Part shown: one piece after another, positions 44,750 through 47,240 of the stretch
Numbering within the stretch: the first letter of the stretch is position 1
How the letters are laid out: each line of letters starts with the position of its first letter
Assembly (NCBI RefSeq): GCF_055900595.2
Contig: NZ_JBVWEU010000002.1
DNA: 64,000 bases
Origin: a plasmid
Direction: 5' to 3' (one strand)
The notes under the pieces: model-generated
Database searches by the model: none
What the model saw: only the letters and a program-made list of their open reading frames with translations
What the model was told of the DNA's origin: nothing
Translations under genes and position numbers: made by a program

Positions 44750-44921
44750 AGATAATCTGATCGACAATACGAGTGGGACCGTGGTCCCAAACTGATTATC
44801 AGACCGACAATACAAGTGGGACCGTGGTCCCAGGCCGATAATCAGACCGACAATACAAGTGGGACCGTGGTCCCAAACTGATTATCAGACCGACAATACA
44901 AATGGGACCGTGGTCCCAGAT
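44750..44921. repeat. sopC: sopC centromere: four tandem 43-bp repeats, each with the inverted repeat TGGGACCGTGGTCCCA
   Basis: Repeat units at 44750, 44793, 44836 and 44879. Directly downstream of sopB. Confidence 0.88.
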
Positions 44922-45010
44922 ATAATATTCAGACCAGTTAGTTATGTTTTCTAGCCTGTGCTAAAGGAAATTAAGTAAAGACAGATAAATGTAGACTAAA
45001 ACATGCCGCA

Positions 45011-45982
45011 TCAAAGTGCCGTTTTTTCAAGTTCCTTAAGAATGGCTTCAATTTTCTCTATACACTCAGTTGGAACACGAGATCTATCTAGGTTTAGCAC
45101 CATTTTATCGCCCTTGTACAACACTGTCGCTCCAGGAGCAAACTGATGTCGTGAGCTTAAGCTAGTTCTTGAGGCAGATGACGTTTTAAGCACAGATGTT
45201 AAAAGAGTGATGACTTCTTCAGCTTCAAATATCACCCCTGCTTTTTTCTGCTCGTGAAGGTTAGATGCCTGTTGCTTAAGTAATTCTTCTTTATCTGTAA
45301 AAGCTCTTTGAAGTGCATCACCTGACCGGGCAGATAGTTCACCAGGATGAGAAAAAAGAGCAACAACTGATTTTGGCAGTTTAGCTGTGTTTATACAGCG
45401 GGTAATAATCTTACGTGAAATATTTTCCGCATCAGCCAGCGCAGAAATATTTCCAGCAAATTCATTCTGTAATCGGCTTGCATAACGCTGACCACGTTCA
45501 TAAGCACTTGTTGGGCGATAATCGTTACCCAATCTGGACAATGCAGCCATCTGCTCATCATCCAGCTCGCCAACCAGAACTCGAAAATCACTTTCTGTAA
45601 GTGCAGCAGCTTTACGGCGGCGGCTCCCATCGGCAATTTCTATGATCCCAGACACTCTTCGACCAAACGCTGGTGTCTGCTGACCTGTCAGTAGAAAAGA
45701 AGGGATAAGATCATCCAGGGCATCTTCAGTTAGCAGTTCCTGGTCACGTTCATTACCTGACCATACCCGAGAGGTCTTCTCAACACTATCTCCCCGGAGC
45801 ACCTCAAGGGTAAATTTCACGTCCCGACCACATACAGGCAAAGTAATAGCATTGCCACGAGCCATAGCTCCTACGCGCGCAATTAACGAATCCACCATCG
45901 GTGCAGCTGGTGCCGATGACGAAGTATCTTCAAGCGGTTGAGTCTTAAGCGTATGTTTTGGAATTACAGGCGCACGCTTCAT
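45011..45982 (-). CDS. sopB: SopB (ParB-type) partition protein (323 aa)
   Basis: Size equals F SopB. Synteny with sopA and sopC. Confidence 0.93.
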
Positions 45983-47157
45983 TATTTAATCTCCCAGCGT
46001 GGTTTAATCAAACGATCGAAAATTTCATTGCAGACAGGTTCCCAGATAGAAAGGGCATTTCTCCAGGCACCTGTTGAAGAGCGTTGATCAATAGCCTGTT
46101 CAAAAACAGTTCTCATCCGAATCTGACCTTTACCAACTTCATCCGTTTCACGTACAACATTTTTTAGAACCATGCTTCCCCAGGCGTCCCGAATTTGCTC
46201 CTCCATCCACGGGGACTGAGAACCATTACTATTACTGTATTTGGTAAGCAAAATACGTACATCAGGCTCGAACCCTTTAAGATCTACGTTCTTGAGCAGA
46301 TCACGAAGCATATCGAAAAACTGCAGAGCGGAAGTGTAGTCGAACAACTCAGCAGGCGTGGGGACAATCAACACATCAGCAGCACATACGACATTAATCG
46401 TGCCGATACCCAGGTTAGGCGCGCTGTCAATGACAATGACATCATAGTCATGAGCGACGGTTTCAATGGCCAGCCGGAGCATCAGGTGTGGATCGGTGGG
46501 CAATTTACCTTCATCAAATTTGCCCATTAGCTCAGTTTCAATGCGGTGCAGAGCCAAACAGGAAGGAATAATGTCAAGCCCAGGCCAGCAAGTAGGCTTT
46601 ATTGCATAAGTGACATCGTCCTTTTCCCCAAGATAGAAAGGAAGGAGAGTATCCTCTGCATGAATATGAAGATCTGGCACCCAGCCGTGATACATCGATG
46701 CTGTTCCCTGGGGGTCGTTACCTTCCACGAGCAGAACACGTAGTCCCTTCAGAGCCAGATCCTGAGCAAGATGAACAGAAACAGAGGTTTTGTAAACGCC
46801 CCCTTTATGAGCAGCAACTCCAATCACCGGCGGAAATACGTCTTCAGCACGTCGCAGTCTCGTACCAAACACGTCGCGCATATGATTAATTTGTTCAATT
46901 GTATAACCAACACGTTGCTCAACCCGCCCTCGTATTTCCATATCCGGGTGCGGTAGCCGGCCTGCTTTCTCGGCATCCCTGATAGCCTGAGAAGATACTC
47001 CAACTAAATCCGCTGCTTCACCTATTCTCCAGCGTCGGGTGATTTTCCTTGCTTCCGGACTGTCATCATTAAACTGTGCAATGGCGATAGCCTTCGTCAT
47101 TTCATGACCAGCGTTTATGCACTGGTTAAGTGTTTCCATAAGCCTCATTCTGAACAT
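45982..47157 (-). CDS. sopA: SopA (ParA-type Walker ATPase) partition protein (391 aa)
   Basis: Near-identical to recalled F SopA (..[46 protein letters not shown].. KGGVYKT Walker A). Confidence 0.95.
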
Positions 47158-47240
47158 CCTTTAATCATTGCTTTGCATTTTTTTATTAAATCTTGCATTT
47201 AATTGCAAAGCAACAATAAAATTGCAAAGTTGTTTAAAAT
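47158..47240 (-). promoter_or_regulatory. sopAB promoter/operator with repeated CTTTGC / GCAAAG SopA-binding motifs
   Basis: ttgctttgca, cttgca, ttgcaaag, ttgcaaag within 47161-47225. Confidence 0.6.

Follow-up and report, generated by a model that had tools for sequence, protein, structure and literature searches.

A sopABC partition locus with a short sopC array and no adjoining RepFIA replicon

In the F plasmid, the partition genes belong to a module with the order ccdAB-resD-ori-repE-incC-sopABC. The number of 43-bp repeats that make up the sopC centromere varies in nature, and a survey of 22 natural sopC centromeres (Pillet et al. 2011; PMC3177203) found from 3 to 17 of them, with 4 in pETEC74, 6 in pO157 and 3 in pYVe227. 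The authors of that survey considered the repeat number not to be important and cited earlier work in which a single repeat stabilised mini-F (PMC3177203). For the sopAB promoter, a scheme of CTTTGC hexamers (IR3-4, IR2-2' and hexamer #1) has been described, in which IR3-4 is the primary SopA site (PMC8465637). The partition genes are also known apart from the RepFIA replicon, as in pAPEC-1 (2009), which has a complete sopABC and only RepFIIA/FIC and RepFIB replicons (PMC2626276).

Here we describe a sop locus in a window of 64,000 nucleotides of plasmid DNA (contig NZ_JBVWEU010000002.1 of RefSeq assembly GCF_055900595.2). We read this locus as a working F-type (type Ia ParABS) cassette of a large conjugative IncFIB and IncFII/FIC Escherichia coli plasmid and as the survivor of a RepFIA-like module, a reading to which we assign a probability of about 0.9. 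Over positions 24291-64000, the window shares 99.9% identity with the final 39.7 kb of the E. coli plasmid pB771_128330 (NZ_CP120558.1, hereafter pB771), and several E. coli plasmids of 78-168 kb match the 3.9 kb around the sop locus with 100% identity. The plasmids that match the sop region are F-like conjugative plasmids. All statements on the whole plasmid are drawn from pB771, the closest complete relative, and not from the source record.

The gene sopA (45982..47148, minus strand) encodes a type Ia ParA Walker ATPase with an N-terminal wHTH, 388 residues long from the F-equivalent start, with the open frame reaching 47157. Its stop codon overlaps the start of sopB at 45982, and sopB (45011..45982, minus strand), which encodes a ParB-type centromere-binding protein of 323 residues, follows immediately downstream in the same operon. 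SopA matches the NCBIfam equivalog NF010259 over its full length (residues 1-388) with 871.5 bits (cut-off 725), and SopB matches NF010252 with 634 bits (cut-off 274). A type Ia ParA and an adjoining ParB-family protein, as expected for an F-type SopABC system, are thus both present. The first-pass annotation had called the two genes F-identical, which is wrong for the DNA (92.1% identity to F over the region, 94.9% for sopA and 93.2% for sopB) and only nearly true for the proteins, which are 99.5% (SopA, 2 substitutions) and 97.2% (SopB, 10 substitutions) identical to those of F. With dS from F at ∼0.25 to 0.28 and dN/dS values of 0.009 for sopA and 0.049 for sopB, the pair bears the marks of strong purifying selection. 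The same SopA protein accession is found across hosts and countries.

Downstream of sopB, a sopC centromere built of 43-bp repeats as in F occupies 44720..44934 on the minus strand. Set in the F register it consists of five units, four with a perfect SopB site and one degenerate terminal unit, and TRF places a tandem repeat of 43-bp period at 44751-44918 (3.9 copies, score 273). As the SopB site we took the 16-bp inverted repeat TGGGACC-Pu-Py-GGTCCCA, present once in each 43-bp repeat. The perfect 16-bp sites (TGGGACCGTGGTCCCA) start at 44774, 44817, 44860 and 44903, the cores carrying TGGGACCACGGTCCCA lying at 44774-89, 44817-32, 44860-75 and 44903-18, and all four match the consensus needed by SopB (consensus from PMC3177203). 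The degenerate terminal unit, with its core at 44731-46 (TGAGACTACGATTCCA), corresponds to the last (12th) repeat of F. Overall, the repeats are 84 to 89% identical to those of F. Terminator-like calls within sopC turned out to be the SopB palindromes only.

This locus had initially been credited with only four 43-bp repeats against twelve in F. The four perfect sites are indeed there, but the fifth, degenerate unit is present as well, and the classical count of 12 for F itself comprises 10 good sites and 2 degenerate end units, in agreement with both the report that only 10 of the 12 repeats of F bind SopB (PMC3177203) and our in-register listing of the cores. Since the count for F includes the two degenerate units, a like-for-like comparison is of 5 with 12 units or of 4 with 10 binding sites. 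The label "minimal" does not hold either. Among sister plasmids, defined by an identical SopA protein and the same truncated ccdB and IS21 neighbors, C8 plasmid A and an isolate from a pigeon have 3 perfect sites, pB771 has 4 and ECdb0013_p4 has 5, and these counts lie within or close to the low end of a natural range in which even one repeat is reported to suffice (PMC3177203). In ColV-class plasmids that share both flanks, the arrays are longer, with ∼6, 11, 11, 11, 12, 12 and 15 units, and pG12a has 9 exact sites in an array of 11 units. The repeat number of sopC is therefore ordinary and the four-repeat array is not unusual; it represents one length of a labile array in which 43-bp units come and go.

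Because short-read assemblies can collapse tandem 43-bp repeats, the count of four might also be read as the collapsed remainder of a longer array. We consider this extremely unlikely, given that the array is only ∼215 bp long, that the same count recurs across many independent complete-level assemblies and that distinct 3-site and 5-site variants occur in otherwise identical contexts. A search for other sopC cores, with up to 2 mismatches allowed, found none in the window or in the window joined to pB771 positions 1-64330, so that the array is the only one detected over this length.

The sopAB promoter and operator (47158..47240, minus strand) were delimited by alignment with F, pG12a and pAPEC3701. 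Four SopA-binding hexamers are predicted, #4 at 47171-76, #2' at 47191-96, #3 at 47205-10 and #2 at 47224-29, with intact spacers of 28 bp in IR3-4 and 27 bp in IR2-2'. Compared with F and the ColV plasmids, a 19-bp deletion comprising one CTTTGC hexamer and a 13-bp spacer removes hexamer #1. When the operator of the window is used as the reference, F-type promoters align with an insertion of 19 to 20 bp and the alignments of ColV-type promoters break at the deletion point. Of 2509 E. coli records, 33 have this operator form, and the deletion is a small, lineage-specific peculiarity. Despite the loss of hexamer #1, the region still has the predicted makeup of the autoregulated promoter of an F-type system. 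As IR3-4 is intact, autoregulation is expected to be preserved, possibly in weakened form, and with hexamer #1 missing it may differ from that of F. One could go further and regard the trimmed operator, together with the 3 to 5 SopB sites, as an adapted state and not as the product of neutral decay, which we think improbable. Were it so, SopA autoregulation would be re-tuned, or partition incompatibility mediated by sop (IncD type) would be lowered, and a reduced incompatibility with co-resident F-like plasmids would make coexistence with other sop-bearing plasmids easier.

Upstream of the operator, homology to F continues only through a stub at 47241..47280 (minus strand), which corresponds to F 49637-49680 by blastn and alignment and stops at window position 47280, equivalent to F 49637. 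The incC iterons of F would start ∼180 bp beyond this stub and are absent here. A consensus scan for the 19-bp iterons allowing up to 3 mismatches gave a single match at chance level, at position 1218, and none in 47158-47929. With F RepE as the query, tblastn found no match at an E value of 1e-3 or below in the window and pB771 positions 1-64330, and a blastn search with F positions 44000-50000 recovered only the truncated ccdB and the sop promoter. No match to ccdA was obtained, and the ccdAB addiction pair is absent except for residues 35-101 of ccdB. None of the hallmarks of RepFIA, namely repE, iterons adjoining sopA and a ccdA/ccdB pair, is thus present. The proposal that no replicon adjoins the partition locus had been made with two things that would speak against it, further sopC repeats elsewhere or repE/incC iterons within 47241-47929; neither was found, and the observation therefore stands.

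The location of the replicons was followed in pB771, where the RepFIB initiator gene begins directly past the end of the window, ∼17 kb from sopA, and the IncFII/FIC repA lies just ahead of the window start, with no repE. That the IncFIA label given to pB771 by MOB-suite derives from the sop promoter or truncated ccdB region is not supported, as pB7A_52, which has the same region, is typed as IncFIB only.

The sequence beyond the stub, which had been left as unexplained, resolves into the F stub itself, an unannotated fragment of a group II intron, a ccdB pseudogene and one end of an IS21-family element. The intron fragment (47285..47571, minus strand) is a decayed 5' part of domain I that starts with GTGCGCCC at 47571, reading downward, and has an internal deletion of ∼236 nt. 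It is 77% identical to a multicopy element of Sinorhizobium meliloti that has Rfam group-II D1-D4 matches and a reverse transcriptase (RT) ORF of 452 residues. A P1-like phage-plasmid has a longer copy, also lacking an ORF, to which the fragment is 91% identical. Homologous copies, that of the P1-like plasmid among them, reach gathering scores of Rfam (RF02001 and RF01998); the fragment itself matches RF02001 below threshold, with 23.4 bits and an E value of 0.008 in a search restricted to 47240-47640, and a search of 44000-50000 with Rfam at an E value of 0.1 or below gave no match. For domains V-VI there was no Rfam Intron_gpII match, and 47285-47571 contains no RT ORF. With a 5' GUGCG end and homology to domain I, and with neither catalytic domains nor an RT, the fragment is classed from its sequence as the remnant of an intron and not as an intron. 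It is not a copy of either of the two ltrA-bearing introns of pB771, as a blastn search with 47200-48300 gave no match to them. Its relatives in E. coli (pHYEC7-mcr1 and an ETEC1749 plasmid) are likewise ORF-less fragments, and a full-length parent intron was not found in E. coli.

Directly 5' of the intron remnant lies a short imperfect hairpin (47572..47606, minus strand), which in the blast alignment is also found beside the copy in the P1-like plasmid and so travels with the remnant. We also looked at this hairpin as a terminator; its folding energy of -14.6 kcal/mol (z = -1.6) is not significant on its own, and we claim no such role. It is followed by a ccdB pseudogene (47611..47828, minus strand) ∼450 bp upstream of sopA, which retains residues 35-101 of the F gyrase toxin and lacks the N terminus and ccdA. 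Over these residues the relic is 92.5% identical to F CcdB (tblastn; 91% at the nucleotide level), and it scores 120 bits with the NCBIfam CcdB model, below the cut-off of 147, over profile positions 35-101. RefSeq annotates it as a pseudogene.

An IS21-family remnant beyond this spacer, which the first-pass annotation had reported, is present at 47829..48688 on the plus strand and retains the left inverted repeat along with an istA that is frameshifted and cut short at its 3' end. The inverted repeat (TGTCAGCGCC..., from 47829) sits in ccdB exactly where F homology ends, and this end of the element aligns with the left end of ISEc62. The istA sequence scores 142 bits with the NCBIfam IS21 transposase model, below the cut-off of 160, and is a RefSeq pseudogene. 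Because istB and the right end are absent, we call the element a remnant. We discarded an apparent IS21 element adjoining sopA in ETEC plasmids (H104-H107), which arose when BLAST segments that lie apart were joined; the ISEc62 of pF5505-C1 is on the downstream side of sopC.

The ccdB relic shows that the sop locus descends from a ccd-res-rep-sop module like that of RepFIA, and the idea that the partition system had been separated from its original replicon is borne out by this relic and by the loss of RepFIA. The lost stretch of F starts at the stop codon of ccdB and ends ∼150 bp short of sopA, and a 325-bp intron remnant, with its short 5' hairpin, stands in its place. We propose that the replication and addiction genes would have been lost in at least two events, whose order we infer. 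In one, insertion of an IS21-family element into ccdB would have removed the 5' portion of this gene together with ccdA; in the other, resD-ori-repE-incC (2.77 kb of F, 46868-49636) would have been replaced, with the intron remnant now marking the site.

It had been suggested that the separation came about by an IS-mediated rearrangement, and this finds only partial support. The left end of the IS21 element abuts ccdB precisely where F homology stops, and the element is itself truncated. Related ColV-class plasmids, moreover, have IS1 directly upstream of the sop promoter (as in pG12a), and in pAPEC3701 IS1 truncates repE. However, such an insertion accounts for the missing ccdA and the missing 5' portion of ccdB but not for the missing resD, repE and incC. 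What adjoins the sop operator (junction at 47281-47285) is the group II intron remnant, and the breakpoint between ccdB and the operator has no IS end, so that IS mediation of the loss of repE and incC is not supported. Nor did we find an intermediate plasmid with the sop allele of the window among the 27 PLSDB records with at least 99% identity, all 27 of which already have the final arrangement. That an IS-mediated rearrangement cut the partition system from its replicon is therefore doubtful, even if it deserves more credit than the other alternatives considered here. The same arrangement, at 99% identity or more, recurs in complete E. coli genomes of chicken, human, cattle, pigeon and baboon origin, 32 in all.

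The same outcome appears to have been reached along another path in the ColV/ColBM-type IncFIB/FII plasmids (pAPEC-1, pG12a and pAPEC3701). Like the plasmid studied here, these combine sopABC with RepFIB and RepFIIA/FIC while RepFIA is absent or truncated, and their sop allele is ∼96% identical to that of the window. They differ in that IS1 abuts the sop promoter where the window has the intron remnant, that the operator lacks the 19-bp deletion and that sopC has 6 to 15 units. With ccdAB, resD and an N-terminal repE stump followed by IS1 and sopAB, pAPEC3701 shows an intermediate state of RepFIA loss in this related class, the same result being arrived at differently.

In comparison with F (NC_002483), the gene order, the 16-bp SopB site, the 43-bp period and the core of the promoter with IR3-4 and IR2-2' are alike. 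The DNA of the window is, however, 92% identical to that of F, sopC has 4 good sites against 10, the operator is without hexamer #1, and incC and repE are missing upstream. On the other side, the 3.6 kb that follow sopC in F are absent and sopC joins the leading region directly. With pETEC74, pO157 and pYVe227 the locus shares a tandem 43-bp sopC array far below the 12 units of F. It differs from pETEC74 in that four of its five units are perfect, whereas two of the four in pETEC74 have the consensus, and in that its first unit is canonical.

By analogy with F, we infer that this allele is active in partition. SopB dimers would occupy the inverted repeats (16 bp, four in all) of sopC and spread from there, giving a partition complex, while SopA-ATP, a Walker ATPase on the nucleoid, would position plasmid copies or complexes. 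SopA, helped by SopB, would also repress PsopAB through the CTTTGC hexamers. As partition works in cis for the entire molecule, an adjoining replicon is unnecessary and the distance to RepFIB (∼17 kb) or RepFII is irrelevant. In pB771, replication would be supplied by RepFIB, with RepFII also contributing. No second partition ATPase is listed for pB771 (∼128 kb) in the PLSDB gene table, which omits pseudogenes and some genes; the sop system is therefore probably the sole active partition system there, and this would fit the strong purifying selection on sopA and sopB.

A contrary view is that the whole locus is a non-functional relic in which the short sopC and the trimmed operator are steps of decay. 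Both neighbors, ccdB and istA, are pseudogenes, the operator has lost a hexamer, sopC is near the low end of the natural range, and the frameshifted sopB of pAPEC3701 demonstrates that sop loci can decay. Against this, both ORFs are intact with dN/dS at 0.01 to 0.05 over a dS of ∼0.25, the SopA accession is identical across hosts and countries, and the four SopB sites are all perfect where a single repeat reportedly suffices (PMC3177203). A plasmid of ∼128 kb with no other annotated partition ATPase (pB771) argues in the same direction. We hold such a relic to be very unlikely and retain the reading of a working cassette.

To see how common this organization is, we surveyed 5426 complete E. 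coli genomes. The sop promoter and the start of sopA are present in ∼2504 of these, a full-length F-type repE in 1503 and a contiguous repE-incC-sopA junction in 1479. From ∼2504 genomes with sop and 1503 with repE, it follows that ∼1000 genomes, or ∼40% of those bearing sop, carry sop without RepFIA. The rarity that had been implied for a sop locus without a neighboring replicon is thus contradicted, and the orphaned state is an ordinary one. Both a short sopC and an orphaned sop locus are already known and common.

These results are of practical value mainly for annotation, as the spacer upstream of the operator can now be labeled as a ccdB pseudogene and a hitherto unannotated group II intron remnant, and as a sop locus is no proof of an IncFIA replicon. 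The 19-bp operator deletion may be used for testing the three-dimer model of SopA autoregulation. The biological weight of the locus is otherwise small, since the range of 3 to 17 repeats, the sufficiency of one repeat and the presence of sopABC without RepFIA in ColV-type plasmids have all been published; what is added here is that sopABC without RepFIA extends to ∼40% of sop-bearing complete E. coli genomes.

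The plasmid pB771 (NZ_CP120558.1), the closest complete relative, is typed as IncFIA, IncFIB, and IncFIC by MOB-suite/PLSDB. Despite the IncFIA label of pB771, neither repE nor RepFIA iterons could be detected. A second plasmid, pB7A_52 (NZ_CP035816.1), carries the sop/ccdB' region as in pB771 and is typed as IncFIB only.

The sop operator harbors a 19-bp deletion (window 47230-47245) that removes SopA-binding hexamer #1. This deletion is limited to the present plasmid lineage: of the 2,509 E. coli records in which a sop promoter occurs, 33 have it. On the other side of the locus, approximately 3.6 kb that lie 3' of sopC in F (F 52516-56168), including a DNA methylase gene, are missing, with the breakpoint at window 44721, and sopC is directly joined to a homologue of the leading region (F 56168 onward, 93.5% identity). 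The same junction between sopC and the leading region appears to be present in the ColV plasmid pG12a. Three of the sopC palindromes (window 44817-44918) were scored as terminator-like by a simple terminator scan, but we rejected them as terminators, the flagged palindromes being the SopB-binding inverted repeats.

Close to sopA, an unannotated and ORF-less 5' fragment of a group II intron, with a short hairpin directly 5' of it, occupies window 47285-47606 on the minus strand. Copies of the intron fragment, with 81 to 91% identity, are found in unrelated E. coli plasmid contexts (L005 5001-5518 and L017 3001-3187), namely, a P1-like phage-plasmid and an ETEC plasmid in which the copy adjoins IS66. 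The hairpin and the intron fragment appear to move or recombine together as one unit. No full-length parent of the fragment was found in E. coli. Outside the window, pB771 itself has a pair of identical group II intron reverse transcriptase/maturase genes, both full-length (ltrA, WP_001189123.1; L004 8240-9748 and 18521-20029), and these introns show no sequence kinship with the remnant adjoining sopA.

We also observed a further orphan sop locus in the ETEC plasmid of strain F5505-C1 (L018 8824-10893), whose SopA and SopB protein accessions are identical to those of F. Upstream of sopA, the place of repE is taken by the remnant of an IS3-family element and by a group II intron ltrA with a frameshift, and this locus looks like an additional, independent route of RepFIA loss.
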